From: a virus
Direction: 5' to 3' (one strand)
DNA: 64,000 nt
IMG/VR virus record: IMGVR_UViG_3300020183_000040
Location: 21,187 to 85,186 of that record
A program made the translations under genes and the position numbers. Each line of letters opens with the position of its first letter. Position 1 is the stretch's first letter. Under the pieces are notes generated by a model that was given only the letters and a program-made list of their open reading frames with translations, was not told the DNA's origin and ran no database searches. Shown in pieces: positions 22,446-44,238 of this stretch.

Positions 22446-22453
22446 TATAAATA
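22446..22453 (+). promoter_or_regulatory. T4-type late promoter TATAAATA
   Basis: Exact consensus directly after the terminator and before the fibre gene. Confidence 0.8.
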
Positions 22454-28400: not shown

Positions 28401-28983
28401 TAGTACTGGCACTGGTCTTACAGTAAATACTACAGTTTCTGGAGGAGTCATTACTGGTGTTGCAATCAACCAGGCAGGTTCAGGTTACTTGATTGGAGAT
28501 TTGATCACTATCCAAAATCCAAACGAAGGTGGTGTTCTTGCATTCGACTTTACAAGCTTTTCCGCAGGTAATGGATATGTAACTGCAACTGGAGTTCCAA
28601 CTACGCCTACTGGTGCATCAGCTGGTACTGGATTGACTGTAAACATTACCGCCCTAAACGGAAACGTTACTAACGTGACTATTGCTAACCCAGGCATTGG
28701 ATATGAACCAGGAGATACGATTTTGATCAATCAGGATGGATCTGATCAGGATGCAACTATTGGCATTGCAACTATAATGACAGACGCCAAATTTACACTA
28801 GCAGATATTAGAACAATGGAAATAGGTGCAACACTTACAGGAGCTACTAGTGGAACTACTGGCATTATTTCAGCACTGGGTGCCGACAACGTGCTTTTGC
28901 ATTCTGTTGATGGATTCTTCAAAATTGGAGAAACTGTTGGCGCTAATGATGTTACAACTCTAACAATCACTTCATTCTCATAA
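22489..28983 (+). CDS. Long tail fibre protein with an Mtd_N/hyaluronidase-like N-terminal domain and Thr/Gly-rich repeats
   Basis: MANRIQLRRG..NPVLAQGEIG..KIGDGTTAWNSLAY; NLNADLLDG and TLKTARTI motifs; many internal repeats. Confidence 0.85.
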   Translation: MANRIQLRRGGSQEWRNANPVLAQGEIGIDLDSGRIKIGDGTTAWNSLAYERPVESVANTANSLVQRDADGNFAAGVVTATLIGNASTASRLTNIRQFQLTQDVIASGVFDGSANLNLSAQLQTISTLPHYDGTTSSQGTYTKLVVDAKGRIINASSPTTIQAYGLDTQIEGTGAQPFDNDLRAVSQLTTTGIAIRGGDGQWTTRSILSTAGQIVITNGSGTGGNPQVDLATTTVVNGNYNTESLTSVSAVGPLGEPFGTQTVNTVKYTVDNRGRLQSSTNVPIATATEGSKYPAYEASTVYARYDIIETGNNVYQAIRAIAAGGGAPAHTSSSDTGGWRYLAAAAIEQKGLASFAQEDFDVDSNGHVTIAALGVDNTQLQNNRISFADGTTKEDFELDQELTANTGYRGFNYLNYVKVNDTSGSLLFTANNTANSGAGGVDINVDTNISGANIILDRPGTSPLQTIERTAGDLRIHHNVSSTVNRTLDIISNNAGTGDATINITADNDVVITSTTGTNYVKVEDIWFRANAITSNNSTIIIDPVTEGDNTGTVQIKGNLQIDGITTTVNSTTVTIDDPIITLGGDSVPTVDDNKDRGVEFRYYDSQARLGFFGWDDSYATLAGTTGGYRFLYDATNASEVFSGTDAGVIAGNLALTSNVDSSSATSGTLVVTGGVGISQQLRVGGNATISGNTSISGTLTTTLDSTFNRSVTIVGSDTAATELFKIQNGSAVDKFTVDSATGNTTIQGTLGTTGATTLSSTLGVTGATTLTGNLTTQSASTVNIQNTANSNVNSAIAGTAYASLGTYGALKVDGGASIANSLVVGGSFKVYGQFDVDGAVSYSGNTVFKGNVSIDNDGVSPFKFNISSSTARLDSIGQIVTTNATDSTTTSTGAVIVTGGVGIGAQLRVGGAATITGNTSITGALAVTSNTTLTGNLVANGSATLGDAAADTLTVNATSTFNAPVTVSSSQATSLGGTLTVTELTTLNRGLTLQGSTTAASEFFRITDGAGTPVTKFLVDSATGNTTIEGSVGITGATTLSSTLSVTDNVTLNKNVTIVGSNTAATELFKIQNASAVDKFTVDSSSGNTTIAGTATITSATQINSTLGVTGVTSLTNTTEQTLTGAAYTADGSVRLTGGLGVAKNLAVAGSMRVFGNFEITGSTTQSGNTGFSGRVSISNTDDITTFGDTTVSLSTTGGFRATRNAYIGGDFYVWDNTNSRVAFGVTNSTGAVSTHGNLTVGGNLIVNGTTTTVNSTTITVDDPIITLGGDTAPTSDDNKDRGVEFRYFDSQARLGFFGFDDSSNEFIFLTGATNTNEIYSGTDGTLRAGSIRVTGASGTTFTVDSNATITGTTTSTRYISTTTTLAPLTVNSTTKVTNLNADLLDGLDTSSSDTTGNSVVSRSSGNFSANIITVATGTGAGAGIQGNALTADTLKTARTITVAGVVDGSVSFNGSSNVTITTTFNDADITALAAMAGTGIVTRTAANTYAQRTIVASPSTGSGITVTNGDGVSGNPTINILSSASNSANNLVLRGSSGEFSAGAITATSLTSSGALSVTGITTLNGVLNANGGIAVDGTRFTVADATGNTSIAGTLGVTGATTLSSTLGVTGATTLSSTLGVTGATTLSSTLGVTGVTTLAGVLNANGGIAVDGTAFTVADTTGNTSITGTLAVTGTSTFTGALTATGGVVGNSSTATTLATARTIAISGDGTGTATSFNGSANITIPFTLATQTGLTAGAYTKVTVSTKGLVTAATQAVTTDIAEGTNLYYTNARADARIALQTGANLDLSQKTTTNLTEGTNLYYTNARADARIALQTGANLNLAQKTTTNLAEGTNLYYTNARADARVALQTGTNLDLSQKTTTNLAEGNNLYYTQARFDTAFGNKTTTSLTEGTNLYYTEARVQSKLDDAFAQLQAMLDNLSTSTTLMLNLSGDPTPGVVLALGGLIDNGGGGFVSAGTNVATTSSTGTGLTVNTTVSGGVITGVAINQAGSGYLIGDLITIQNPNEGGVLAFDFTSFSAGNGYVTATGVPTTPTGASAGTGLTVNITALNGNVTNVTIANPGIGYEPGDTILINQDGSDQDATIGIATIMTDAKFTLADIRTMEIGATLTGATSGTTGIISALGADNVLLHSVDGFFKIGETVGANDVTTLTITSFS
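27283..27414 (+). repeat. 36-nt tandem repeat x3.6 encoding GVTGATTLSSTL
   Basis: Units start at 27283, 27319, 27355 and 27391 (last is partial). Confidence 0.85.
27790..28215 (+). repeat. 105-nt (35-aa) tandem repeat EGTNLYYTNARADARIALQTGANLDLSQKTTTNL; three full and two shorter copies
   Basis: Units start at 27790, 27895, 28000, 28105 and 28180. Confidence 0.9.
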
Positions 28984-28987
28984 AAAA

Positions 28988-29788
28988 ATGTCCGCAACTC
29001 AACCAGCCTCTAAAGCAGAATTGAAGGCATATGCCCTAAGAAGATTGGGGTATCCTGCTATCGACATCAATGTATGTGATGAGCAACTAGATGATCTAAT
29101 TGCAGAAGCAATTAGTCAATGGCAAGAGTTTCACTACGAAGGCAATTATACTGGTCTTGTTAGAATTCAAGTTACTGAAGCAATAAAGACTGCTGCTCTT
29201 CAATCGACTACTAATGGCGCTTGGGAAGAATTAGATAATTATATTGAGATGCCCCCAAACACTTTAGGTATCAACCATGTATATACTACTCTAGGACCAA
29301 GTAGTGTAGTGCCTAATAATATTTTCAATATCAAATATCAGATTTTTCTAAATGATATTTACAATTTTACCCATGGTCAGATTCTTCATTATTTTATGAC
29401 ATCTCAATATCTTGAGACTCTAGACTGGGTAACTAGTTCTTCTCAACATCGAAGAGTGAGATGGACAGTTCATCAAAATAAATTATACCTAGATTTTGAT
29501 TGGAGAGATCTCCAAGTTGGTCAATATATTTTAGTTGAAGCTTCATTTGGAGTTGATCCTGAAGTTTATAATAATGCATATAATAACGAATGGCTGAAGG
29601 GATATACTGAGGCATTGTTCCAACAACAATGGGGGCAAAATCTTAGTAAATACGATGGTATTCAAATGATTGGCGGCGTAACACTCAACGGTCGTCAAAT
29701 TTTAGAAGATGGTAGAAATAAAAAAGAATCCCTAATTCAAGATCTTCATAGTAGATACGAATTACCACCTCTTGATCTAATCGGATGA
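28988..29788 (+). CDS. gp13: Neck protein gp13
   Basis: LRRLGYPAIDINV..QLDD and QWGQNLSKYDGIQMIGGVTLNG motifs; synteny. Confidence 0.92.
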   Translation: MSATQPASKAELKAYALRRLGYPAIDINVCDEQLDDLIAEAISQWQEFHYEGNYTGLVRIQVTEAIKTAALQSTTNGAWEELDNYIEMPPNTLGINHVYTTLGPSSVVPNNIFNIKYQIFLNDIYNFTHGQILHYFMTSQYLETLDWVTSSSQHRRVRWTVHQNKLYLDFDWRDLQVGQYILVEASFGVDPEVYNNAYNNEWLKGYTEALFQQQWGQNLSKYDGIQMIGGVTLNGRQILEDGRNKKESLIQDLHSRYELPPLDLIG

Positions 29789-30954
29789 CTTACTCAAATA
29801 CTCCACCAAAAAACTGTATTCAGTCAGATTATAACAGTACATGTAGGATCAATATAAATGGTTCTGCTCAGGAGCAGACATTTATAGAAAATCTTATAGT
29901 TGAGAGTATTGAAATTTATGGTCAAGAAATCTATTATATCCCAAGAACTAGAGTAAAAACTGATGACATTCTCAACGAAATTCAAGCAAGTAGTTTCAAT
30001 TCTGCTTACTCCTGTAGAGCCTACGTCAATAATGTTGAAGGATGGGAGGGACAAGGCGAATTACTTAGCAAATTTGGAGTACGTATCGAAGATAAAACGA
30101 CGTTTGTTATTTCCCGCAAAAAATTTACTCAAAAGGTTGACAACAATGTAGCTCTTGCTGTAGAAGGTAGACCAAATGAAGGAGACCTTATCTGGTTCCC
30201 TGTTGCAAAACATTTGTTTGAAATCAAATTTGTAGAGGCAGAAAGACCATTCTATCAACTTGGTAAAGGATATGTTTGGGAAATGCAATGTGAACTATTT
30301 GAATATTCTGATGAGAAGATTGATACTGGAGTTACTGAAATAGATTCAATTGAAACTGCATTTGCTCATACTATATCACTTATTATGGATCCTGGTGGTA
30401 TTGGTAACTTCACAGTTGGAGAAGAGATTGTTGGTGATGAGTTCCTTGCAAAAGCAACAGCAACAATTACTAGCGGCGCTGTAAGTAGCACAACACTCAG
30501 CGATGGTGGAGAACACTACAATCCAGCAATCCCACCAGCTGTTACATTCTCAGCACCTCCTTCGCCTGGTACACGAGCTACAGGAACTGCAACAGTATCT
30601 GCAAATGGTATTGTAACTGGTATTACGCTAACCAATCCTGGAAGTGGTTACACGTCTGCTCCTACAGTTACGATTGATTACTCACCAAAAGATAACAGGG
30701 CAGAAGTCAAGTCTTGGAATCCAACAACTCGTGCTCTAGAAGTCATCAATAGAACTGGTACATTCACTACTGCTGAAACAATTACTGGTCTTACATCTAA
30801 CGCAAAATGGAGTCCATATTCTTATAACACACTAAATAATACAAACAGTACTTATGATAAGAACTCTGAGTATGAAATTGCCGATGATAGTATCATCGAT
30901 TTTACAGAAACAAATCCTTTTGGAAGTGTTGGATCTACTAGCGGTACATTCTGA
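29785..30954 (+). CDS. gp14: Neck protein gp14 with an inserted Gly-rich repeat domain
   Basis: ESIEIYGQEIYYIPR, LSKFG, RPNEGDLIWFP, FYQLGK and DFTETNPFG motifs. Confidence 0.92.
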   Translation: MTYSNTPPKNCIQSDYNSTCRININGSAQEQTFIENLIVESIEIYGQEIYYIPRTRVKTDDILNEIQASSFNSAYSCRAYVNNVEGWEGQGELLSKFGVRIEDKTTFVISRKKFTQKVDNNVALAVEGRPNEGDLIWFPVAKHLFEIKFVEAERPFYQLGKGYVWEMQCELFEYSDEKIDTGVTEIDSIETAFAHTISLIMDPGGIGNFTVGEEIVGDEFLAKATATITSGAVSSTTLSDGGEHYNPAIPPAVTFSAPPSPGTRATGTATVSANGIVTGITLTNPGSGYTSAPTVTIDYSPKDNRAEVKSWNPTTRALEVINRTGTFTTAETITGLTSNAKWSPYSYNTLNNTNSTYDKNSEYEIADDSIIDFTETNPFGSVGSTSGTF

Positions 30955-31787
30955 TGTTAGGAAATTATTTTTATCATTCAATTATTCGTAAAACAGTTGT
31001 TGCTTTTGGAACACTATTCAACAACATTGAAATTCGTCGTCAAAACGAAGTTATGAAAGTGCCGCTTGCTTATGGACCTACAGATAAGTTTTTGGCAAGA
31101 TTGAATCAAAATCCAGATCCTACTAATAAAAGAGTTCAAATTACTCTGCCAAGAATTTCGTTTGAAATGACAAACATTGATTATGATCCTTCTAGAAAAG
31201 TAGCACCAACAAATAAAATAAAAATTCCAAATGCAGATGATGATTCTAAGACTGCATACATGCCAGTTCCATATAATCTAGAATTTGAATTAGGTATTAT
31301 TGCAAAATCTCAAGATGATTCTTTACAAATCATTGAACAAATTCTCCCATACTTTCAACCACATTTCAATCTCAGTATCAAATTGATTGAGGATATCAAT
31401 GAGATTCGTGATATTCCAATTACACTCAATAATATTAGTTACGAAGATAGTTATGAAGGAGAGTTTGCTACTCGCAGAGCTCTAATTTATACTCTGAAAT
31501 TTACTGCAAAGACATATCTTTATGGTCCTGTTATCGATGCTCCAACTATCAAGAAAGCAATCGTTGATAGTTACACATCTATGGAGCAAATAACTGCTCC
31601 TCGTGTCACCAGATATACAGTTACTCCAAAGGCAAAGGTTGATTATAATAACGATGGATCTATAAATGCTTCTGATGATCCATTTACAGATCCAGATGAT
31701 GATTTTGGATTCAACGAATTATTTGCAACGTTCCAAGACAATAAAAAACGTAATCCAGTGACAGGATCTGATGAGGATATCCCATGA
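30954..31787 (+). CDS. gp15: Tail sheath stabiliser/terminator gp15
   Basis: YFYHSIIRKTVVAFGTLFN, KVPLAYGP, LPRISFE and EQILPYFQP motifs. Confidence 0.93.
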   Translation: MLGNYFYHSIIRKTVVAFGTLFNNIEIRRQNEVMKVPLAYGPTDKFLARLNQNPDPTNKRVQITLPRISFEMTNIDYDPSRKVAPTNKIKIPNADDDSKTAYMPVPYNLEFELGIIAKSQDDSLQIIEQILPYFQPHFNLSIKLIEDINEIRDIPITLNNISYEDSYEGEFATRRALIYTLKFTAKTYLYGPVIDAPTIKKAIVDSYTSMEQITAPRVTRYTVTPKAKVDYNNDGSINASDDPFTDPDDDFGFNELFATFQDNKKRNPVTGSDEDIP

Positions 31788-32212
31788 CTACATTTGATGG
31801 ACTAAATGATGTGTTTGGAACAGAACCAACAGAAGTAAAAAAATATGAAGATCAAAAAATGATTGTGAAAAAAAGTGAGCATGTTGATGTTCGCCAAGAC
31901 TATGAAATCACTCGTGCTCAACTACATAATCTTGTTATGAAAGGGCAGGAGGCTGTTGATGGGATACTTGATGTAGCGCGGTCATCAGATCATCCTCGTG
32001 CTTATGAAGTTGCTGGTCAACTTATCAAAAGTGTTGGAGATGTAGCTGATAAACTTTTAGATCTTCAGAAAAAAATGAAAGATCTTGATGATGAACCAAA
32101 GAAAGGTCCAAGCAATGTAACTAATGCCCTGTTTGTCGGTAGCACTGCAGAATTGCAAAAGCTACTAAAACAGCAAAATAGAATAAATAATACAGAACAA
32201 GAAGGCGTCTAA
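31784..32212 (+). CDS. gp16: Terminase small subunit gp16
   Basis: DYEITR, HPRAYEVAGQLIK and NALFVGSTAELQKLLK motifs. Confidence 0.93.
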   Translation: MTTFDGLNDVFGTEPTEVKKYEDQKMIVKKSEHVDVRQDYEITRAQLHNLVMKGQEAVDGILDVARSSDHPRAYEVAGQLIKSVGDVADKLLDLQKKMKDLDDEPKKGPSNVTNALFVGSTAELQKLLKQQNRINNTEQEGV

Positions 32213-32214
32213 TC

Positions 32215-32490
32215 ATGTCAAGAAGAATTATTGTGCAAAATAGTGAGGTAACTCTCAGTACAGCTACTAATCTAAGTAAGGCAAGATTGGTAAGAGTGTT
32301 GAACGATACCGCTGCAAGCATTGTTCTAACGATTGATGATGCTGCACAGGCAGCTGCTAGAGAAGATTACGATACAAAAGGTTCTAGAACTATTACAGTT
32401 GGATCACTAGAAACTATCTATCTTGAGAAAGAACCATTGGAAACTATCAGTGGTTCTGGACTAAAATGTACAGCAATTGCAAGACAATGA
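32215..32490 (+). CDS. Hypothetical protein, possibly virion-associated
   Basis: Clean ORF directly after gp16; AATAAATA late-promoter-like site at ~32182. Confidence 0.7.
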   Translation: MSRRIIVQNSEVTLSTATNLSKARLVRVLNDTAASIVLTIDDAAQAAAREDYDTKGSRTITVGSLETIYLEKEPLETISGSGLKCTAIARQ

Positions 32491-33788
32491 AAACATTTTC
32501 CGAGTTTATGGCAGAGGGTAATCCTACCGCTCGTATGCTTCACAAATCAAAAACTCAAGTCACAGGGCACATCTCTGCCGATCGTGGCGATGATGAAAGT
32601 GCAAATCGTACAAAGCGCAAATCACTTGAGAAAGATCTAAAGAAGCATGGTATTGGGCATCAGAAGGGTGTAGGTGAATACAAATATTCTTCTGGTGAGG
32701 GCACTGGTAGAGAGGTTTCCTATCAAACATCTAAACCAGATAAAATGTCTAAGCGTAGATTTGGAAAGGTAATGCGTCGTCTTGGTCGTAAGCATGGTCA
32801 AGAATCTGTTATCACAAAAGATTCCAACAAACCTGCTAAACTACATTATACTGATAAAGGATCTAAATCAACATCTGACACTATTGGTCATAGTAAATCA
32901 GGTAAGCACCCAGAAGGATATGGGGAAACTTCGGGCACTAAAGTTCGTGGTTCTAAACTTCCTAAGAAAACCACTAAGTCTGCTTATCACTACGAAGAAT
33001 TTGTTGAAGAGGGATTGAGAAAAAGACTTGCTGCTGGTGCATTAGCTGCCGCAGCTGCAGTTGGATCTGGCGGTGCGGCAAAAGCAGGTCATCATCATGG
33101 TGAGGTTCATGTTCGTCATGGTTCTACTCCTGCAACTGCCACTCATCATTCTGTAGCAAGTGCAGTTGATAAGGCACTTGCAAATAAAGATAGTAGTGGT
33201 GGAAAGGAGTTTCATTCTGCATCTCATGAGAAGGGCAAAACTGGAACAACTGTTCATGGAAAGTATGAGTATTCTGCTTCTGGCGGTTCAGATAATAAAA
33301 AAGCAACAGAGGCTCCTAAACCAAAACGAGGAGAAGATTCTCGTAAACGTGGTAAGCATGATCCGTCAAGGGGGTCAGCGCCAGCAGTTCGTTCTACAAC
33401 ACATAGTCCTGAGCGAGATCGAGCTCAGCATGGTGATCGGGGCAATGGCAATGGTCATCGGAGCAATGGTAGTGGCGGTGACCGTGGCGGCGGATCAACT
33501 TACCGTATGAGCAGTTATATTCCTTCCTTTGGAGACTTCATGTCGGAAGGAGAAGCTTGGACTAGAAAGGAGGGTCAGAATAAAAATGGTGGTCTCAACG
33601 CAGCAGGTCGCGCATCTTACGAAAGAGCAAATCCTGGATCTGATCTCAAGGCACCTTCAAAGAAGGTTGGAAATCCCCGCAGGGCGTCATTCTGTGCCAG
33701 AATGAAAGGAATGCGTAAAAGACAAAAGGATAGTAACAACACTGGCGAGGACCGTCTATCGAAATCGCTTCGTGCGTGGAATTGTTGA
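32487..33788 (+). CDS. Putative internal head polyprotein: SAM-lyase-like module, His/Gly-rich module and DUF6321-like module
   Basis: Start revised to ATG 32487 (ATGA overlap). MKTFSEFMAE resembles the T4 capsid-targeting sequence; internal YEEFVEE and FGDFMSE; GxY/ExS/QESVI motifs; C-terminal RRASFCARM...RAWNC. Confidence 0.7.
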   Translation: MKTFSEFMAEGNPTARMLHKSKTQVTGHISADRGDDESANRTKRKSLEKDLKKHGIGHQKGVGEYKYSSGEGTGREVSYQTSKPDKMSKRRFGKVMRRLGRKHGQESVITKDSNKPAKLHYTDKGSKSTSDTIGHSKSGKHPEGYGETSGTKVRGSKLPKKTTKSAYHYEEFVEEGLRKRLAAGALAAAAAVGSGGAAKAGHHHGEVHVRHGSTPATATHHSVASAVDKALANKDSSGGKEFHSASHEKGKTGTTVHGKYEYSASGGSDNKKATEAPKPKRGEDSRKRGKHDPSRGSAPAVRSTTHSPERDRAQHGDRGNGNGHRSNGSGGDRGGGSTYRMSSYIPSFGDFMSEGEAWTRKEGQNKNGGLNAAGRASYERANPGSDLKAPSKKVGNPRRASFCARMKGMRKRQKDSNNTGEDRLSKSLRAWNC

Positions 33789-33897
33789 TGAGCAATATTT
33801 ATCAGTAAGTAAACACATACTTATCAAATTAGAACTTATTGTAACAATTTTTTTTGGTAAATAGTAGTATAATTTTGTAGCAACTTGATACTTCCTT

Positions 33898-34116
33898 ATG
33901 GTAACGTACTACTGCACAGTAATAACACTCATTGCGATGATCTGGCTCTGGGGTCTAGACGGCACAGAAAGATTATTCCTATATGTAGATTTTCAAATTA
34001 GATATTTTGGTCTAAAAATGAGATTGTGGAAAAGAGCGCGAAGGTTAGAAAAGGAACTTTCTATTCCACAAACATCATTTATAAAATTCTTAGAGGACTA
34101 TAATAATGGAAAATAA
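33898..34116 (+). CDS. Small hypothetical protein with an N-terminal hydrophobic helix
   Basis: ORF track; GTAAATA and TATAAT upstream; overlaps the next ORF. Confidence 0.6.
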   Translation: MVTYYCTVITLIAMIWLWGLDGTERLFLYVDFQIRYFGLKMRLWKRARRLEKELSIPQTSFIKFLEDYNNGK

Positions 34117-34357
34117 AGAACTGTCCGATCTATCAATTGATAGACAGGAATGTTTGAGATGTGGAGCAATCTGGTTGAATGGTCAGCATTATTGGTCTGG
34201 CACTGGTAAGTTGGGAGATCCTCATGATCTTGCTGGATTAGTTTGTAATATGGTCAACGATAAAAATTGTATAAATCCTTGTAAAGGATCTACAAGTGGA
34301 GTAACATGGGTAGATCGTTGGCAAAAATTGGAGAAACTTGAGTGGCCCACAGAATGA
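34106..34357 (+). CDS. Hypothetical Cys-rich protein (CxxC...C...C..C), possibly zinc-binding
   Basis: GAGG RBS; ECLRCGAIWLNGQHYWSGTG..LAGLVCN..CINPC. Confidence 0.75.
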   Translation: MENKELSDLSIDRQECLRCGAIWLNGQHYWSGTGKLGDPHDLAGLVCNMVNDKNCINPCKGSTSGVTWVDRWQKLEKLEWPTE

Positions 34358-34560
34358 ATCAAATACATCCAGAACATCATGTTACTCACAAAGAATGTCA
34401 GGAGATGATTGATGCTGCTATTAGAAAGCATAATAGAAATGCATCAATCATCTCCATGTTCGTCGGTTGGTTTGTCCTTGCTTTATTTGCTGAAGGACTC
34501 CTAAGACTTATAGGCGTTATTCCACCACTACTACCATGGCTCAACATTACCCTGAAATAA
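34354..34560 (+). CDS. Small membrane protein
   Basis: ATGA overlap start at 34354; hydrophobic IISMFVGWFVLALFAEGLL. Confidence 0.7.
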   Translation: MNQIHPEHHVTHKECQEMIDAAIRKHNRNASIISMFVGWFVLALFAEGLLRLIGVIPPLLPWLNITLK

Positions 34561-34727
34561 TTGGGGTCTCACTCTTACTAATATTTCTTGCTACAATGAC
34601 CTATCATGGGATCATGATTCACAAAGGTTTGCGTGGATATAGAAATCATGCAAGGGAAGAACACGAATCTGAGCAGATGCGTCGAAGAATCGAAGACCTA
34701 ATGAATGAAAAAATACATTCGAAATAA
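34536..34727 (+). CDS. Small membrane protein
   Basis: TM segment IIGVSLLLIFLATMTY; overlaps the previous ORF. Confidence 0.6.
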   Translation: MAQHYPEIIGVSLLLIFLATMTYHGIMIHKGLRGYRNHAREEHESEQMRRRIEDLMNEKIHSK

Positions 34728-34732
34728 ATATC

Positions 34733-34861
34733 ATGCCAAGTAATTTTCCGTGGGGTGTAATTGCTATCCTTAGTGTGGGACTGAGTTTCACTCTATATGT
34801 GATCGTATATATACTTCGTATTGCATATTTGGAGATGCAAGATGGCAAAAAGCCCAAATAA
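34733..34861 (+). CDS. 42-aa single-pass membrane microprotein (not in ORF track)
   Basis: MPSNFPWGVIAILSVGLSFTLYVIVYILRIAYLEMQDGKKPK; fills the gap between neighbouring ORFs. Confidence 0.6.
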   Translation: MPSNFPWGVIAILSVGLSFTLYVIVYILRIAYLEMQDGKKPK

Positions 34862-34958
34862 AGGTAAGAAAGGTTCTCCTGGAGGACAAAAAAATTCCAA
34901 GCAAAATCAGGGAAATGCCACAGCTAGAAAAGCAAAAAACGGTGGTAAAAAGAAATGA
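34842..34958 (+). CDS. 38-aa Lys/Gly-rich basic microprotein (not in ORF track)
   Basis: GGAG RBS at 34831; MAKSPNKGKKGSPGGQKNSKQNQGNATARKAKNGGKKK; stop overlaps the next ATG. Confidence 0.65.
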   Translation: MAKSPNKGKKGSPGGQKNSKQNQGNATARKAKNGGKKK

Positions 34959-35167
34959 AGAACCTAGCAATCATTCTGTCAGCAACAAGTCTGGCAGTTA
35001 GTGGAGCATTGTGTTATGGTGCTTACGTAACCTATCAGAAAGCACAGAAGATTCTGGACAATCCAGAGGCGTTTGTCGGTGCTGTTGTGGAGAAACAAGT
35101 CAATAAAGCATTTGAGAAACTACCTATTCCCAAACTAAATACTAAAGAGTTTAGGTTGCCTTTCTAA
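34955..35167 (+). CDS. Small protein with an N-terminal signal anchor
   Basis: MKNLAIILSATSLAVSGALCYGAYV; ATGA coupling. Confidence 0.7.
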   Translation: MKNLAIILSATSLAVSGALCYGAYVTYQKAQKILDNPEAFVGAVVEKQVNKAFEKLPIPKLNTKEFRLPF

Positions 35168-35322
35168 TGAATTATATTGCATTCTTGGTTATTGGATTGG
35201 TAGAAATCGGTCCTAATGTATGTAAAGTTGATTACATGCGTTATGTTGATGTGCAATCCTTTACGATGCCTTGCGATCATATTCAAAAAATTACAAAAGC
35301 TCCAGTGGATAGATCGATATGA
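35167..35322 (+). CDS. 51-aa hypothetical protein (not in ORF track)
   Basis: TAATG coupling upstream and ATGA coupling downstream; MNYIAFLVIGLVEIGPNVCKVDY... Confidence 0.6.
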   Translation: MNYIAFLVIGLVEIGPNVCKVDYMRYVDVQSFTMPCDHIQKITKAPVDRSI

Positions 35323-35723
35323 AAGACCCCTATATCTACAGAATCCGTTCAATTGCAAAGGTGGTAGATGGCGACACTATTGACGCTAACATTGATCTCG
35401 GTTTTGATATCTCTCTCAATAAGCGAATTCGCCTTGCGGGCATTGACACGCCTGAGAGCAGGACAAAAGACGAATACGAAAAGAAACTCGGACTCGAATC
35501 GAAAGAGTGGTTGAAGAAGCATCTGGAGGGATCTAAAGATATTCTTATCAAGACTGAACTTCCAGATAGCACAGAGAAGTATGGTCGTATCATCGGACAC
35601 TTGTATATCAACGGTGAAGAAATATCAGTCAATAATAAAATGATCAACGAAGGATACGCCTGGGAATATGACGGTGGTACAAAACAAAAAGATTTTTGGT
35701 CTCTTCTAAGTAAAAGAAAGTGA
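35319..35723 (+). CDS. Thermonuclease (staphylococcal nuclease-like)
   Basis: KVVDGDTID, RIRLAGIDTPE, EKYGRIIG and MINEGYAWEY SNase motifs. Confidence 0.9.
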   Translation: MKDPYIYRIRSIAKVVDGDTIDANIDLGFDISLNKRIRLAGIDTPESRTKDEYEKKLGLESKEWLKKHLEGSKDILIKTELPDSTEKYGRIIGHLYINGEEISVNNKMINEGYAWEYDGGTKQKDFWSLLSKRK

Positions 35724-35730
35724 AAAAATT

Positions 35731-37386
35731 ATGTCAGCAAGTGATTCGATATATCTTGGTAATCCAAATCTAAAGAGGGCAAATATTACTCAGGAATTTA
35801 CTAATGAACAAATTAGTGAATTTGCTAGGTGTTACAATGATCCTGTATATTTTATTAGAAAATATGTAAAGATTGTTTCTCTTGATGAAGGTCTTGTTCC
35901 TTTTGACATGTATGATTTCCAGCAAGAAATGGTATGGAAATTTCATAACAACAGATTCAATATTGCTAAACTTCCTAGACAGTCTGGTAAATCTACGATT
36001 GTAACATCATACCTTTTGTGGTATGTCATTTTCAATGACAACGTAAACGTTGCAATTCTTGCAAACAAAGCAGCTACTTCTCGTGAGATGTTGCAGCGTC
36101 TACAAAGATCATATGAAAATTTACCTAAGTGGTTGCAGCAGGGTATCGTTCAGTGGAACCGAGGAAGTATTGAACTAGAAAATGGTTCTAAAATCATGGC
36201 AGCATCGACCTCTAGTTCTGCTGTCCGAGGTATGTCATTCAACATCATCTTCCTAGACGAGTTTGCGTTTGTTCCAAACCACATCGCAGATGAATTCTTT
36301 AGTTCTGTATATCCTACCATTTCTTCTGGTCAGAAAACAAAAGTTATTATTATTTCTACCCCAAAGGGTATGAACATGTTCTATAAACTTTGGCATGATG
36401 CTGAACGTAATAAGAACGAATATGTAACTACAGAAGTTCATTGGACAGAAGTTCCTGGTAGAGACGCTACTTGGAAAGCACAGACTATTGCTAACACTTC
36501 AGAATCTCAATTCCGTGTTGAATTCGAGTGTGAATTTTTAGGATCTGTCGATACACTAATTTCTCCATCTAAACTTAGAACTCTAGTTTATGATGAACCG
36601 ATTACTCAAAATAAAGGGTTATCTGTATACCATGGATCACAACCAGAACATAATTATACTATTTGTGTTGACGTTGCAAGGGGTGTAGCAAATGATTACT
36701 CAGCATTTACCGTTATTGATACTACTACTATCCCATACAAATTAGTCGCAAAGTATAGGAACAATGAAATCAAACCTATTATCTTCCCAAATATTATTGT
36801 TGACGTTGCTAAAAATTACAATCATGCATACATCCTTGTTGAAGTCAATGATGTTGGCGGGCAAGTAGCAGATATTATTCAATATGATTTAGAGTACGAA
36901 AACCTCCTAATGGCATCAATGCGAGGACGAGCTGGTCAAATTGTTGGTCAGGGATTCTCTGGTAAAAAAACCCAAATGGGGGTAAAAATGTCATCTGCTG
37001 TGAAAAAAGTTGGTTGCCATAATCTTAGAGCACTGATCGAAGAAGATAAACTAATAGTAAATGACTATGATATTATTTCAGAACTTACTACATTTATTGA
37101 AAAGGGTCAGACATTTCAGGCAGAAGAAGGATGTAATGATGACCTTGCTATGTGCTTGGTAATTTTTTCTTGGTTGGCTCTACAACCTTACTTCAAAGAG
37201 ATGCATGACGATGATGTTCGTCAGAGAATTTACGAGGATCAAAGAGAAGCAATTGAAGAAGATATGGCACCGTTTGGGTTTATGGATGACGGATTGAGTT
37301 CAAATCAATTTGTTGATGCAGAGGGAGAAGTGTGGCATACCGATGAATACGGTGATAAAGCGTATATGTGGGAGTATCTTAGTTGA
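35731..37386 (+). CDS. gp17: Terminase large subunit gp17
   Basis: PRQSGKST Walker A, IIFLDEFAF Walker B, VDVARG and DDLAM nuclease motifs. Confidence 0.97.
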   Translation: MSASDSIYLGNPNLKRANITQEFTNEQISEFARCYNDPVYFIRKYVKIVSLDEGLVPFDMYDFQQEMVWKFHNNRFNIAKLPRQSGKSTIVTSYLLWYVIFNDNVNVAILANKAATSREMLQRLQRSYENLPKWLQQGIVQWNRGSIELENGSKIMAASTSSSAVRGMSFNIIFLDEFAFVPNHIADEFFSSVYPTISSGQKTKVIIISTPKGMNMFYKLWHDAERNKNEYVTTEVHWTEVPGRDATWKAQTIANTSESQFRVEFECEFLGSVDTLISPSKLRTLVYDEPITQNKGLSVYHGSQPEHNYTICVDVARGVANDYSAFTVIDTTTIPYKLVAKYRNNEIKPIIFPNIIVDVAKNYNHAYILVEVNDVGGQVADIIQYDLEYENLLMASMRGRAGQIVGQGFSGKKTQMGVKMSSAVKKVGCHNLRALIEEDKLIVNDYDIISELTTFIEKGQTFQAEEGCNDDLAMCLVIFSWLALQPYFKEMHDDDVRQRIYEDQREAIEEDMAPFGFMDDGLSSNQFVDAEGEVWHTDEYGDKAYMWEYLS

Positions 37387-42153: not shown

Positions 42154-42465
42154 ATGTCTAAAAGTGCTAGTGAAATAGTTGATCAAATTTTTTCTGGAGA
42201 TAAAGTTTCTGCATTAGATTCAATTGATAGTGCGTTACAATCTCGGGCATATGACTTGATTCAGCAAACAAAACATGAATTTGCTAAGCAATGGGGTTTT
42301 GAACTTGATCAAACTGGTCAAGCAGTTGCTGATGAACTTGAAGATACTTTGCCTGATGGTACGGATGCTCCTCAAGATTATGAATTTGATGGTCGAATGC
42401 CCCATGAAGCCCCAGATGATGAAGTAACACCAGAAGAGGAAAACGAAAATGAAACTGATCTCTGA
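42154..42465 (+). CDS. Acidic prohead core-like protein (gp67/68 position)
   Basis: Lies between portal and protease; very acidic; GGAG RBS. Confidence 0.65.
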   Translation: MSKSASEIVDQIFSGDKVSALDSIDSALQSRAYDLIQQTKHEFAKQWGFELDQTGQAVADELEDTLPDGTDAPQDYEFDGRMPHEAPDDEVTPEEENENETDL

Positions 42466-43093
42466 GCAAATTGTAGACGTAAAATTTATTGCCGAAGAAG
42501 TAGAAGGTAAAAAAAATTACTTCATCGAAGGTATTTTTCTACAAGGAGAAATCAAGAATCGTAATGGAAGACTGTATCCAATGAGTGTTTTGGATAGAGA
42601 AGTTGCTAAATATGATGAAAACTTTATCCAGAGTGGTCGCGCCCTTGGCGAACTTGGTCACCCTGATGGTCCATCTTTGAACCTAGATAGAGTTTCACAC
42701 AAAATTATGCACCTCAAAAAAGAGGGAACCAACTATGTTGGTAGAGCAAAAATTTTGGCAACTCCCATGGGACAAATTGCAAAGAATCTTCTAGACGAAG
42801 GTATCAAACTTGGAGTTTCATCCCGTGGAATGGGCTCTCTTATCAAAAAAGATGGCTATCAAGTAGTAGCAGATGATTTCATGCTTGCTACAGCTGCAGA
42901 TATTGTAGCAGATCCTTCAGCTCCTGACGCATTTGTGAATGGAATTATGGAGGGTAAGGAATGGGTGTGGTCTAATGGCATCCTAAAGGAGTCAGAAGTA
43001 GCTTCAATCAAACATTTTATTGATGAATCAACTCTAATCAACCTACAGGAGCGCAAAATTTCCGCATTCAAATCCTTTCTAAAAAGTTTATAA
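42449..43093 (+). CDS. gp21: Prohead core scaffold protease gp21
   Basis: NRNGRLYP, GELGHP, GVSSRGMGSL and DIVADPSAPDAFV motifs. Confidence 0.97.
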   Translation: MKLISEQIVDVKFIAEEVEGKKNYFIEGIFLQGEIKNRNGRLYPMSVLDREVAKYDENFIQSGRALGELGHPDGPSLNLDRVSHKIMHLKKEGTNYVGRAKILATPMGQIAKNLLDEGIKLGVSSRGMGSLIKKDGYQVVADDFMLATAADIVADPSAPDAFVNGIMEGKEWVWSNGILKESEVASIKHFIDESTLINLQERKISAFKSFLKSL

Positions 43094-43103: not shown

Positions 43104-43146
43104 ATTGATAGAAAAGCAAATGCCGACTACTAAAGGAGATACAGAA

Positions 43147-44238
43147 ATGTCTACAACCCTTGACAAAGAGTTTGAGGCGCACATGTCCGAAGAAGAAATT
43201 TCTGAGGAAGCAGCTACTGGTTATGCAGCTGTAACAAAGGGCGCTAAATCTGGTGAAAAAATTGATCGCAGTGGTGCTAAGTACACTGAGATTGGTGGAA
43301 CTCGTAATGATTCCGAAGAGGGTGCCAAGGGCACTAAAAATCTAGGTGCAGCAGCAGCAGGCGCTGTTGGTCATGAGGGAGATAAAACTCTCAAGAATAA
43401 GCCTTCCGATGCATCTAGTGCATTGCCAGGAGCACTATCTTCACAAATCTTTGACGAGGTAGAGACCGATGAAGAAGAAACAATCAGCGAAGAAGATGCA
43501 CTTGCATCCCAAGAATATGACTTTGCTGACGATGTTGACGCTCTTGTGGGGGGTGAAGACCTCTCCGAAGAATTCAAAGATCGTGCAAAAACCATCTTTG
43601 AAGCCGCAGTTACTTCTAGAGTAAAAGTAGAAGTTGCTGCAATCCAAGAAGCTTTTGAGAGCGCACTTGAAGAACAAGTTGCAGCACTCAAAGAAGAATT
43701 GACTACTCAAGTAGATGATTACCTTTCTTATGTTGCTGGTCAATGGATGAATGAAAATACAATCGCCATTGAGCACGGTATCAAGACTGAGATCGCTGAA
43801 TCATTCATGAGTGGTCTAAAAGAACTTTTCGTAGAACACAATTTCAGTGTACCCGAAGAGAAATTCAACATGCTTGACGGCATGGCTGAAGAGCTTGATG
43901 ATATGGAGCAAAAACTCAACGAGCAAATCGACACCAATGTTCAATTGAACAAACAACTTGGACTTTTTATGAAAATGGAGATTGTGAGTGAAGTCGCTGC
44001 AGGTCTCGCTGAGACTCAGAAGGAGAAGCTTGCTTCTCTGGCAGAGGGTGTTGAGTTTGAAAGTGAAGCAGATTTTCGCAAGAAAGTCGAAACTATCAAG
44101 GAATCCTACTTTACTCGCCGTGATGTAGTTGCAACTACAGACACAACCGAAGATGTAGAACCATTGGTAGAAGAGACACAGCAAAAGAATACGCCAATGA
44201 GCAGATATGTTGATGCTCTTGCACGCTGGTCTAACTAA
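43147..44238 (+). CDS. gp22: Prohead core scaffolding protein gp22
   Basis: Start revised to ATG 43147 (AAGGAG RBS); LSEEFKDRAKTIFEAAV, VDDYLSYV..WM.EN and IKESYF motifs. Confidence 0.93.
   Translation: MSTTLDKEFEAHMSEEEISEEAATGYAAVTKGAKSGEKIDRSGAKYTEIGGTRNDSEEGAKGTKNLGAAAAGAVGHEGDKTLKNKPSDASSALPGALSSQIFDEVETDEEETISEEDALASQEYDFADDVDALVGGEDLSEEFKDRAKTIFEAAVTSRVKVEVAAIQEAFESALEEQVAALKEELTTQVDDYLSYVAGQWMNENTIAIEHGIKTEIAESFMSGLKELFVEHNFSVPEEKFNMLDGMAEELDDMEQKLNEQIDTNVQLNKQLGLFMKMEIVSEVAAGLAETQKEKLASLAEGVEFESEADFRKKVETIKESYFTRRDVVATTDTTEDVEPLVEETQQKNTPMSRYVDALARWSN

Follow-up and report, generated by a model that had tools for sequence, protein, structure and literature searches.

A single open reading frame (ORF) of a T4-like cyanomyovirus may be read as the precursor of internal head proteins, one of which would be an S-adenosylmethionine (SAM) lyase injected into the host against its defenses. 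We lean slightly towards this reading, which draws on sequence comparison, a predicted structure, and analogy with T4. The ORF lies in the window, by which we mean the whole stretch of DNA that was analyzed (64,000 nucleotides, positions 21,187 to 85,186 of the IMG/VR virus record IMGVR_UViG_3300020183_000040). Because the lyase-family module stands behind the same short tag that T4 uses for loading its head, its injection together with the DNA is probable. The ORF as a whole has the appearance of a polyprotein, with three basic modules and a leader-like site before each of them:

32487..33788, + strand: 433-aa ORF of the putative polyprotein (leader, SAM-lyase module, low-complexity basic module, and DUF6321 module)
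32487..32516, + strand: leader MKTFSEFMAE (residues 1-10), a capsid targeting sequence of the T4 type, predicted to be cut by gp21 after Glu10
32517..33011, + strand: SAM-lyase-family module (residues 11-175, folded core about 24-171; Pfam PF23780, AF2, Foldseek)
32991..33014, + strand: second leader-like site, YEEFVEE followed by G, with predicted cleavage after Glu175 that would free the lyase from module 2
33012..33548, + strand: module 2 (residues 176-354), basic, of low complexity, rich in Ala, Gly, and His, and outside known families
33528..33551, + strand: third leader-like site, FGDFMSE followed by G, with predicted cleavage after Glu354
33549..33785, + strand: module 3 (residues 355-433), with DUF6321 at 364-431 (Pfam PF19846, E 4.5e-21)

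The initial annotation had placed a SAM-lyase-like domain at 32517-33011, and these coordinates do correspond to residues 11-175. We prefer the start at 32487 over that at 32466 because homologs open with MKTF or MKS and because it overlaps the preceding stop in an ATGA. The immediate upstream region contains two further features:

32215..32490, + strand: 91-aa ORF directly before the putative polyprotein, its stop overlapping the start of the latter
32182..32189, + strand: AATAAATA, a box resembling a T4 late promoter, 26 bases upstream of the 91-aa ORF, with ATAAATA at 32183-32189

Full TATAAATA boxes precede structural genes at 22489, 37452, 40476, and 43105, the consensus being that of T4 late promoters. 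Since the window contains no more such boxes than chance would give, the one upstream of the 91-aa ORF is a candidate only; scans of 28000-36000 for sigma-70 promoters and for terminators also remained at or below chance. The product of the 91-aa ORF is 61% identical (E 1e-33) to S-SZBM1_195, an abundant virion protein (emPAI 2.66, rank 3 in Table 1 of PMC9146016). S-SZBM1 has a separate gene, with its own leader, for each module, the DUF6321 domain being a gene of its own that opens with MKTFKQYITE. All three modules of the window's ORF are basic (pI 9.9-11), as are the T4 internal proteins, with a computed pI of 9.9 for module 2 (residues 175-358). Module 2 (33012-33545) has no Pfam match, and a literature search found no paper on DUF6321.

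The assignment of residues 11-175 to the SAM-lyase family is supported by profile searches, the predicted fold, and conserved ligand-binding residues, and the domain proposed in the initial annotation is thereby upheld. The Pfam family PF23780 (S-AdoMet lyase) matches the whole ORF with 30.6 bits (E 3.7e-7), just 2.6 bits over its curated gathering cut-off of 28 bits, and the module alone with 33.1 bits (E 6.1e-8). Among the diverse relatives gathered in one alignment (A2, n = 57), it matches 56, with a best E of 3.1e-22. The profile of this alignment, run against 177,635 distinct PDB sequences (E<=10), returned exactly two matches, both of them SAM lyases: the T3 enzyme (gp0.3; PDB 7OCK, 8BB1) with E 3.3e-6 and Svi3-3 (PDB 6ZM9, 6ZNB) with E 0.0085; no SAM-AMP lyase was among them. 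The single sequence of the module and the profile of 30 close homologs (alignment A1) retrieved only chance-level matches from the PDB sequences, none of them to a SAM lyase, and the link to the solved enzymes emerged solely with the more diverse alignment. A PF23780 search of the contig itself gave no match, as did its controls, which marks a failure of sensitivity; the Pfam scan of the ORF was positive.

The AF2 model of the module (pLDDT 83.2, pTM 0.78) has the strand and helix order beta-alpha-beta-beta-alpha-beta, that is, a ferredoxin-like (PII-like) alpha-beta sandwich, which is also the fold of Svi3-3. A Foldseek comparison of residues 11-175 with SAM lyase structures had been suggested as a check, and it revealed the anticipated similarity: among 350,542 chains, ranks 1-7 are all SAM lyases. 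In VIA-align, the T3 SAM lyase (8bb1_E), which is the best match in structure as it is in the PDB profile search, reaches Z 13.9 (rmsd 2.7 over 126 residues, model range 24-171), with about 12-15% identity in the structural alignments. Svi3-3 is a weaker match (Z 8.5, rmsd 4.5), the best unrelated chain reaches Z 7.2, and PII proteins reach about 6. Matches of the model in BFVD are podovirus proteins annotated as SAM hydrolase. As to assembly, Svi3-3 is a trimer with active sites at the subunit interfaces, while the free T3 SAM lyase purifies as a dimer and binds MetK as a monomer (bioRxiv 2023.02.27.530186), and the oligomeric state thus varies within the family; a homotrimer prediction with three copies of residues 11-175 (A2) scored 0.00 against a mark of 0.42 in a run with no controls folded, and so speaks neither for nor against an oligomer.

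The same comparisons bear on the suggestion that the substrate of the module is not SAM itself but a messenger derived from it, such as SAM-AMP, which would make the module an injected anti-CRISPR directed at type III systems. The SAM-AMP lyase of C. botulinum and the phage AcrIIIB4 candidate share with the module the PII-like fold, a catalytic Glu, and a conserved Gln, and one phage enzyme is known to cleave SAM-AMP and not SAM (PMC12255297). In the C. botulinum enzyme, whose substrate carries AMP, the residues that bind AMP are W64, F84, T110, and Y122 (PMC12255297). However, this enzyme (9gad_E) is a weak structural match to the model (Z 5.8, as against 13.9 for the T3 SAM lyase), just the Glu and the Gln are structurally common to both enzyme types (PMC12255297), and Tyr65 together with the Gly-x-Tyr motif is a feature of SAM lyases (PMC7877911). 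As the model is closer to the T3 SAM lyase than to Svi3-3 or the SAM-AMP lyase, the messenger offered as a possible target in the initial annotation gains no specific support, and we regard it as extremely improbable. Marine picocyanobacteria, moreover, are not known to carry CRISPR systems often.

At the level of residues, HMMER family-profile alignments to the T3 SAM lyase and Svi3-3 place the SAxR, GxY, ExS, and Q[DE]S/QDC motifs in register, with SAxR, GxY, E, and Q[DE] of the T3 enzyme aligning with the module. Three short stretches carry the presumptive SAM-binding residues, all located with the HMMER alignment:

32673..32681, + strand: Gly63-Glu64-Tyr65, equivalent to Svi3-3 Gly56-Val57-Tyr58
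32712..32720, + strand: Glu76-Val77-Ser78, equivalent to Svi3-3 Glu69-x-Ser71 (T3 Glu68)
32799..32807, + strand: Gln105-Glu106-Ser107, equivalent to Svi3-3 Gln104-Glu105-Ser106 (T3 Gln94-Asp95)

The translation contains what had been read from it at the outset, namely ISADR at residues 29-33, GEY with Tyr65, TGRE with Glu76 and then VS, and GQESVIT with Gln105/Glu106. The SAM-lyase motifs and the 11-residue Tyr-to-Glu spacing named there agree both with the HMMER register and with the residues of Svi3-3 reported as conserved or ligand-binding (Gly56, Tyr58, Glu69, Ser71, Gln104, Glu105, and Ser106, with a Tyr-to-Glu spacing of 11) in Guo 2021 (PMC7877911). These seven correspond to Gly63, Tyr65, Glu76, Ser78, Gln105, Glu106, and Ser107 of the module; the sequence QESVI is common to both proteins, and the module showed no residue equivalent to Svi3-3 Ser50. 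We examined 268 relatives, 225 of which cover the module core. Gly63, Glu76, and Gln105 are each kept in every one of the 225, at identities down to 23%, and position 65 is always aromatic; Asp or Glu stands at position 106 in 222, Ser78 is kept in 211, and Ser107 in 205. The equivalents of Gly63, Glu76, and Gln105 are, according to PMC7877911, the sole strictly conserved residues in proven SAM lyases, in which they bind SAM; the turnover of Svi3-3 is 9.5 per second (PMC7877911).

Conserved SAM-binding residues are nevertheless no proof that turnover is the function, since the T3 SAM lyase also acts by binding MetK without catalysis: its catalytically dead mutant E68Q/Q94A still inhibits BREX via MetK (bioRxiv 2023.02.27.530186). 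One alternative is that the module is packaged but non-enzymatic in practice, serving either as a basic core-assembly or DNA-condensing protein like T4 IPIII or, once injected, as a blocker of a host protein such as MetK in the manner of the T3 SAM lyase, with SAM binding retained as no more than a ligand site. Its pI of 10.0 and 37 Lys+Arg in 164 residues are typical of the T4 internal proteins, which have been described as highly basic (PMC8442874); identity above 70% over the whole domain among cyanophages suggests constraint beyond the active site; and the structure closest to the model is none other than the T3 SAM lyase. Yet there would be little reason for a protein that only packs to hold its SAM-binding residues invariant (225/225) or nearly so (Asp/Glu106, 222/225), and the MetK-binding residues of the T3 enzyme are reported to be unconserved in divergent SAM lyases (bioRxiv 2023.02.27.530186). 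We consider a non-enzymatic role unlikely, though it deserves some weight, and continue to favor an active lyase.

Both the T3 SAM lyase and Svi3-3 are without a capsid leader, unlike the ORF described here. Its MKTFSEFMAE is identical in 7/10 residues to the MKTYQEFIAE of T4 IPII and IPIII (T4 record; PMC8442874), the differences including Tyr4 replaced by Phe and Ile8 by Met. In T4, targeting depends on leader residues 4 and 7 and processing on residues 8 and 10, the affinity of the leader for the prohead core is established, and its ten residues suffice for the loading of a foreign protein and its subsequent delivery into the cell (PMC9026906). The predicted gp21 site is Met8-Ala9-Glu10 followed by Gly11, and hydrophobic-x-Glu at positions 8-10 recurs in 208/216 relatives, with the leader lying at the N-terminus in 64 of these 208 and internally in 144. 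In the leaders of alignment A2, Phe or Tyr occupies position 4 in 45/57 and position 7 in 43/57. Stand-alone homologs stop, at ...HYG, a few residues before the Glu175 site. This ORF has three copies of the full aromatic-xx-aromatic-hydrophobic-x-Glu motif, which is absent from every other credible ORF of the window and the contig, and among the credible ORFs of the 85-kb contig a leader-type N-terminus is unique to it. We rejected the short gp21-site pattern as a diagnostic: hydrophobic-x-Glu-[Gly/Ala/Ser] is enriched in gp21 and gp22, but gp13 also carries such sites (1.1 per 100 residues), while gp23 shows no site when the pattern is applied this strictly. Only the longer motif appears to be specific. 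The window further encodes the two partners that a leader of this type would call for:

42449..43093, + strand: gp21-type prohead serine protease (Peptidase_S77, E 1.4e-33), the predicted cutter of all three sites
43105..44238, + strand: gp22-type scaffold (prohead core; T4_CASP, E 1.4e-81), the predicted docking partner of the leader

With a close T4 counterpart, conservation in relatives, and both gp21 and gp22 at hand, the capsid-targeting peptide of the initial annotation stands.

A leader-bearing homolog has been detected in virions. ORF6 of the T4-like cyanophage S-CREM2, annotated as "S-adenosyl methionine hydrolase (virion protein)", has the leader MKDFDSFLEE, a PF23780 domain (E 2.3e-19), and a C-terminal extension, and is 33% identical to our ORF over residues 1-169; it differs in belonging to a distant subfamily, in lying among replication/repair genes, and in having no DUF6321 module. 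In the S-CREM2 report (PMC10665884), Table 3 lists 19 unique peptides of ORF6 from CsCl-purified virions, and the authors proposed that the protein enters the host and protects the DNA from restriction, with the caveat that non-structural proteins, if abundant, may be carried along when virions are purified. A virion-carried SAM hydrolase that enters with the DNA is thus already in print and is not new in kind; of the injected SAM lyase put forward in the initial annotation, the tag and the enzyme family are borne out and the novelty of the idea is not. The passages of that report examined here mention no leader, cleavage, or polyprotein, and a leader with its cleavage site would supply a mechanism for the presence of ORF6 in the virion, which they leave unexplained. 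A search of the literature, with most subscription journals outside its reach, turned up no SAM lyase for which a capsid leader had been described; on capsid targeting in cyanophages it yielded only a T4 review and on virion SAM hydrolases of cyanophages only the S-CREM2 report, and the paper on polyvalent proteins (PMC5512222) does not mention SAMase or SAM hydrolase.

An alternative that bears on packaging itself is that the likeness of the leader is convergent or vestigial and that the enzyme, like T3 gp0.3, is expressed in the usual way and works in the cytoplasm. This would fit the absence of the closest isolate homolog, S-SZBM1_194 (domain 86% identical), from the 30 virion proteins detected in S-SZBM1, although that list is shallow (Table 1 of PMC9146016) and the domain yields few tryptic peptides of useful length (10/36). 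It would also fit the internal position of the leader in 144/208 relatives, but an internal site is still compatible with a polyprotein processed by a protease. The same holds for genomic position: relatives with the same leader are found among replication genes (S-CREM2; locus L079 of IMG/VR, by PHROGs annotation), yet the ip genes of T4 likewise lie outside the head cluster. Conservation of the leader and its Glu in 208/216 relatives and the peptides of the S-CREM2 homolog (PMC10665884) both speak against this alternative, and we hold it to be very unlikely. The late head-region position stressed in the initial annotation therefore applies to this ORF and not to the family, whose same-leader members include those among replication genes. 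When the proteins of the window were compared by tblastn with 80 IMG/VR loci of a distant subgroup (P0227), almost no common neighbors emerged: the module matches in 17/80, and gp13, gp14, and gp15 in one each.

Under the preferred reading of an injected lyase, the ten-residue leader would dock the precursor onto the scaffolding core during prohead assembly, and the gp21 prohead protease would cleave it after Glu10, Glu175, and Glu354. Three basic head proteins would result, namely an 18-kDa SAM lyase, the low-complexity protein, and the DUF6321 protein, and at infection all three would presumably exit the head together with the DNA. The lyase could then convert SAM to methylthioadenosine (MTA) and homoserine lactone before phage genes are expressed, and the loss of SAM might starve SAM-dependent defenses, for example type I restriction and BREX. 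These are the systems that the T3 SAM lyase counters. The latter, the first viral protein to be expressed on infection according to the abstract of PMC8406200, lacks a leader, whereas the SAM lyase of the window is part of a putative polyprotein and belongs to a myovirus.

The same enzyme and packaging evidence would serve equally for an active injected lyase whose purpose is metabolic take-over, halting host methylation and other SAM reactions, with early salvage of MTA. The T3 SAMase is toxic to E. coli, pointing to global effects of SAM loss (bioRxiv 2023.02.27.530186), and cyanophages are rich in metabolic genes, among which speD (SAM decarboxylase) is cyanophage-enriched (Table 2 of PMC3037559). 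The present evidence fits an anti-defense purpose just as well, however; all characterized members of the family are tied to evasion of defense (type I R-M, BREX, type III CRISPR), and a phage that itself uses SAM (speD, DNA methylases) would gain little from its lasting depletion. We thus think metabolic take-over quite improbable and retain the anti-defense reading.

An analogy may be drawn with T4 IPI, IPII, IPIII, and Alt, basic proteins from which gp21 removes an N-terminal capsid targeting sequence and which stay in the head until they leave it along with the DNA; of these, IPI acts against restriction once injected, and Alt is an enzyme delivered in the same way (PMC9026906). Beyond the leader, the mature parts of these proteins are unrelated in sequence to those of our ORF, they are encoded by single genes whereas three modules share one ORF here, and IPI binds a restriction enzyme instead of destroying a cofactor. 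Two known ideas would therefore meet in this protein, the early-expressed SAM lyases of T3-like podoviruses and the injected restriction inhibitor IPI of T4, and a cofactor-destroying enzyme carried in the head could act before any transcription. Uncultured T4-like phages could also be screened for injected cargo simply by looking for the leader and its cleavage site, which further predict that marine cyanophages keep an arsenal of injected proteins in their variable gp16-gp17 region. In Prochlorococcus and Synechococcus, intracellular resistance and host range could find part of their explanation here.

More generally, the capsid leader, instead of being an addition peculiar to this phage, may belong to the conserved core of one whole branch of the SAM lyase family, with the lyase as protease-released cargo across T4-like phages, a generalization that we find plausible, at slightly less than even odds, and advance tentatively. 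If it holds, the lyase would be made by itself or as one segment of a polyprotein that may reach about 1,100 residues, cyanomyoviruses would have in their gp16-gp17 hot spot a cassette site for such injected cargo, and the destruction of a cofactor from within the virion would be a widespread first strike ahead of phage gene expression. Cultured carriers are P-TIM40, S-WAM1, S-SZBM1, P-SSM4, and S-SSM5. Relatives occur in phages of Prochlorococcus/Synechococcus, Paraglaciecola, Alishewanella, and Campylobacter, and possibly in Lak megaphages.

It is very likely that the 433-aa polyprotein ORF at 32487-33788 (+) carries a SAM-lyase-family domain behind a T4-type capsid leader. The lyase motifs reported in the initial annotation are each present in the translation at the residues named, and 32517-33011 corresponds to residues 11-175, here module 1. 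Pfam family PF23780 (S-AdoMet_lyase) matches residues 29-136 with an E-value of 3.7e-7 and 30.6 bits, a thin margin above the curated cut-off of 28. A word-index search recovered 267 relatives, most with PF23780 already on record, and an exhaustive profile search yielded 205 at E<=0.001. From these, relatives of about 150-270 residues were hand-picked (5 from the close set, 51 from the profile search) and aligned with module 1; identity in this alignment falls to 23%, and PF23780 matches 56 of its 57 sequences (best E 3.1e-22). Run against all 177,635 distinct PDB sequences (E<=10), its profile matched only T3 SAM lyase (E 3.3e-6) and Svi3-3 (E 0.0085), with the SAxR, GxY, ExS and Q[DE]S motifs in register. 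These comparisons bear out the SAM-lyase-like character of the motifs, and on sequence grounds we consider the family link solid despite the thin margin of the target itself.

An AlphaFold2 model based on the alignment (mean pLDDT 83.2, pTM 0.78) displays a beta-alpha-beta-beta-alpha-beta core, and in a Foldseek comparison with the PDB the first seven ranks all go to chains of T3 SAM lyase or Svi3-3. VIA-align superimposes model residues 24-171 on T3 SAM lyase with a Z of 13.9 (rmsd 2.7, 126 residues) and gives 8.5 for Svi3-3; the best-scoring unrelated chain reaches 7.2. An unlikely rival reading makes the module a SAM-AMP lyase; the C. botulinum enzyme of that kind scores 5.8. In the viral structure library BFVD, cyanophage homologues match first, followed by small proteins of podoviruses, of which several carry a SAM hydrolase annotation.

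According to Guo et al., only Gly56, Glu69 and Gln104 (Svi3-3 numbering), all contacting SAM, are strictly conserved in proven SAM lyases; Tyr58 and Glu105 of Svi3-3 enclose the ligand, and its E69Q mutation lowers activity 4500-fold (PMC7877911). The T3 E68Q/Q94A mutant is reported as inactive (bioRxiv 2023.02.27.530186). All 268 relatives retrieved were aligned to an HMM built from the 57-sequence alignment, and 43 whose sequence does not span the core were set aside. Gly63, Glu76 and Gln105 are kept in all 225 that remain, as is an aromatic residue at 65, followed by Asp/Glu at 106 (222), Ser78 (211) and Ser107 (205), counts that are not independent events because many of the sequences are closely related. 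Gly63, Glu76 and Gln105 are also the sole invariant columns of the diverse alignment. We conclude that module 1 is a family member with an intact ligand site; that it turns over SAM, as we infer, is reasonably likely, the rival reading being a non-catalytic protein, either internal or MetK-binding.

The proposed capsid-targeting peptide likewise held up. With a slash at the known or predicted cleavage point, the target begins MKTFSEFMAE/G; the T4 record gives MKTYQEFIAE/A as the start of IPII and IPIII and MKTFKEF as that of IPI. Work on T4 shows that ten N-terminal residues of IPIII are enough for entry into the prohead core, with residues 4 and 7 serving targeting and residues 8 and 10 processing by gp21, and that a foreign protein given this leader is packaged and then delivered into the infected cell (PMC9026906; PMC8442874). 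The target has Phe at 4 and 7, Met at 8 and Glu at 10. Across the 57-sequence alignment Phe/Tyr occupies position 4 in 45 and position 7 in 43, a hydrophobic residue position 8 in 56, and Glu position 10 in 53; among the 216 relatives covering positions 8-10, 208 keep hydrophobic-x-Glu there. This leader is N-terminal in 64 of the 208 and internal in 144, with up to 935 residues ahead, as would be expected of protease-released cargo within a polyprotein. The target ORF holds three copies of the longer motif aromatic-xx-aromatic-hydrophobic-x-Glu-Gly/Ala/Ser; the six frames of the rest of the window add only two, both in short non-coding frames. No other credible ORF of the 85-kb contig has an N-terminus of this kind, and the same phage encodes a gp21-type protease and a gp22-type scaffold. 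Packaging and ejection of the target protein are probable.

Virion proteomes of related phages bear on this in both directions. S-CREM2 ORF6 (414 aa, leader MKDFDSFLEE) contains a PF23780 domain (E 2.3e-19), shows 33% identity with the target across residues 1-169, and was detected in CsCl-purified virions by 19 unique peptides (26% coverage; PMC10665884, Table 3). Its authors suggest that entry of ORF6 into the host might shield phage DNA from restriction, and caution that abundant proteins may co-purify. The rival view, that the protein is not packaged, draws on S-SZBM1_194, the closest isolate homologue (lyase domain 86% identical), which is missing from the 30 virion proteins in Table 1 of PMC9146016 and so counts against packaging. 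The S-CREM2 proteome, at 52 proteins, is the deeper of the two, and only 10 of 36 tryptic peptides of the lyase domain have 7-30 residues. S-SZBM1_195, 61% identical to the 91-aa ORF upstream of the target, ranks third by emPAI in the S-SZBM1 virion proteome (PMC9146016); the 91-aa product may be a small abundant head protein.

The window is taken from an IMG/VR fragment of 85 kb that belongs to a T4-like cyanomyovirus. At the DNA level the isolates closest to it are Synechococcus phages S-SZBM1 and S-WAM1 and cyanophage P-TIM40. All genes around the target lie on the + strand.

Genes and modules around the target ORF
28988, +: gp13
29785, +: gp14
30954, +: gp15
31784, +: gp16, small terminase
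32215-32490, +: 91-aa ORF without known family (PHROG 19805, unknown function)
32487-33788, +: target ORF, then several small ORFs
Residues 11-175 of the target: lyase module
33012-33548, +: module 2 (residues 176-354), basic, low-complexity, Ala/Gly/His-rich
Module 3 of the target: DUF6321 (Pfam)
35319-35723, +: staphylococcal-nuclease homologue (Pfam SNase, E 4.6e-17), just upstream of gp17, lacking a leader-like N-terminus
35731, +: gp17, large terminase
37452, +: gp18, sheath
After gp18, +, in this order: portal gp20, prohead protease gp21, scaffold gp22, capsid protein gp23

The start at 32487 is preferred over an in-frame ATG at 32466 because homologues begin MKTF or MKS and because its ATG shares ATGA with the stop of the 91-aa ORF, to which the target is apparently translationally coupled. 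The 91-aa ORF is preceded, at a distance of 26 bases, by AATAAATA, which resembles a T4 late promoter, and full TATAAATA boxes precede neighbouring structural genes, directly so at 22446, 37405, 40445 and 43096 (+), before a 2164-aa fibre-like protein, gp18, gp20 and gp22. The window holds seven such boxes, all on the + strand, a number not above chance. The consensus being that of T4 and the count no higher than chance, late expression is graded as likely only.

Two further leader-like sites, YEEFVEE/G and FGDFMSE/G, split the target into three parts, all with a pI of 9.9-11. Module 2, without a Pfam match, opens with a hydrophobic Ala/Gly run (LAAGALAAAAAVGSGGAA) and continues with a basic, His-, Gly- and Ser-rich stretch. 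The same parts are found as separate genes in other phages. Stand-alone lyase genes stop at ...HYG, just short of the second site; in S-SZBM1 the lyase domain ends a 707-aa protein, directly behind ...TYREFIAE/G, and adjoins S-SZBM1_192 and _191 (3622-4436 of locus L002), a DUF6321 gene starting MKTFKQYITE and a small gene starting MKSFKSFLSE; and one metagenomic homologue (P0002) fuses the lyase directly to DUF6321. With leader-bearing parts fused in some phages and split in others, the gp16-gp17 region, already described as a variable hot spot in cyanomyoviruses (PMC3037559), has the look of a cassette site where capsid-targeted cargo genes are placed. In several cyanophages the lyase domain forms the C-terminal end of highly basic proteins of 500-770 aa (among them S-SZBM1_194 and a 769-aa protein of P-TIM40), whose N-terminal part has a weak DUF3008 match and otherwise no family.

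A tblastn search of 50,697 phage records with the module found 33, all cyanophages or marine single-virus genomes. With a distant subgroup as the query, represented by the relative P0227, 44 records were found, including S-H34, S-N03, P-TIM68, Paraglaciecola, Alishewanella and Campylobacter (CP220) phages and Lak megaphages, and many of these alignments begin at query residue 1. The late head-assembly position emphasized by the initial annotation does not extend to the family: a 234-kb T4-like contig has its leader-bearing lyase gene among gp46/47, gp45, gp44 and a DNA methyltransferase, and that of S-CREM2 lies near gp46/47 and DNA adenine methylase. Thus, genomic position varies while the leader is kept. 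In two distant T4-like phages (L079 12242-13180; L003 3878-4768) the SAM lyase gene with its leader and a gene for a phage DNA methyltransferase, an enzyme that itself needs SAM, are no more than a few kb apart.

T4 internal proteins are present at 40 to about 370 copies per head (PMC9026906), and Svi3-3 turns over 9.5 times per second (PMC7877911); hence several hundred copies could split SAM at a rate of thousands of molecules each second, a number that by rough estimate is similar in magnitude to the total SAM content of a picocyanobacterial cell. Metabolic take-over is a rival purpose for such cleavage. For the whole chain, in which the lyase would be packaged, ejected with the DNA and cleave SAM against host defence, we put the chances slightly better than even.

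The family assignment is already implicit in Pfam precomputed matches, and a virion-borne SAM hydrolase with the same functional idea has been reported (PMC10665884). Our literature searches found no printed account of loading of a SAM lyase through a T4-type leader with its cleavage site, of the conservation of the leader across the lyase branch, of the polyprotein form, or of the cargo cluster between gp16 and gp17; as far as these searches reach, all four appear to be new. SAM-lyase-like folds are also seen within very large phage proteins at BFVD ranks 23 and 41, namely one of 1477 aa named 'ART-PolyVal-like domain-containing protein' and one of 1231 aa from a Flavobacterium phage named 'Structural protein', which hints at delivery through other virion routes.
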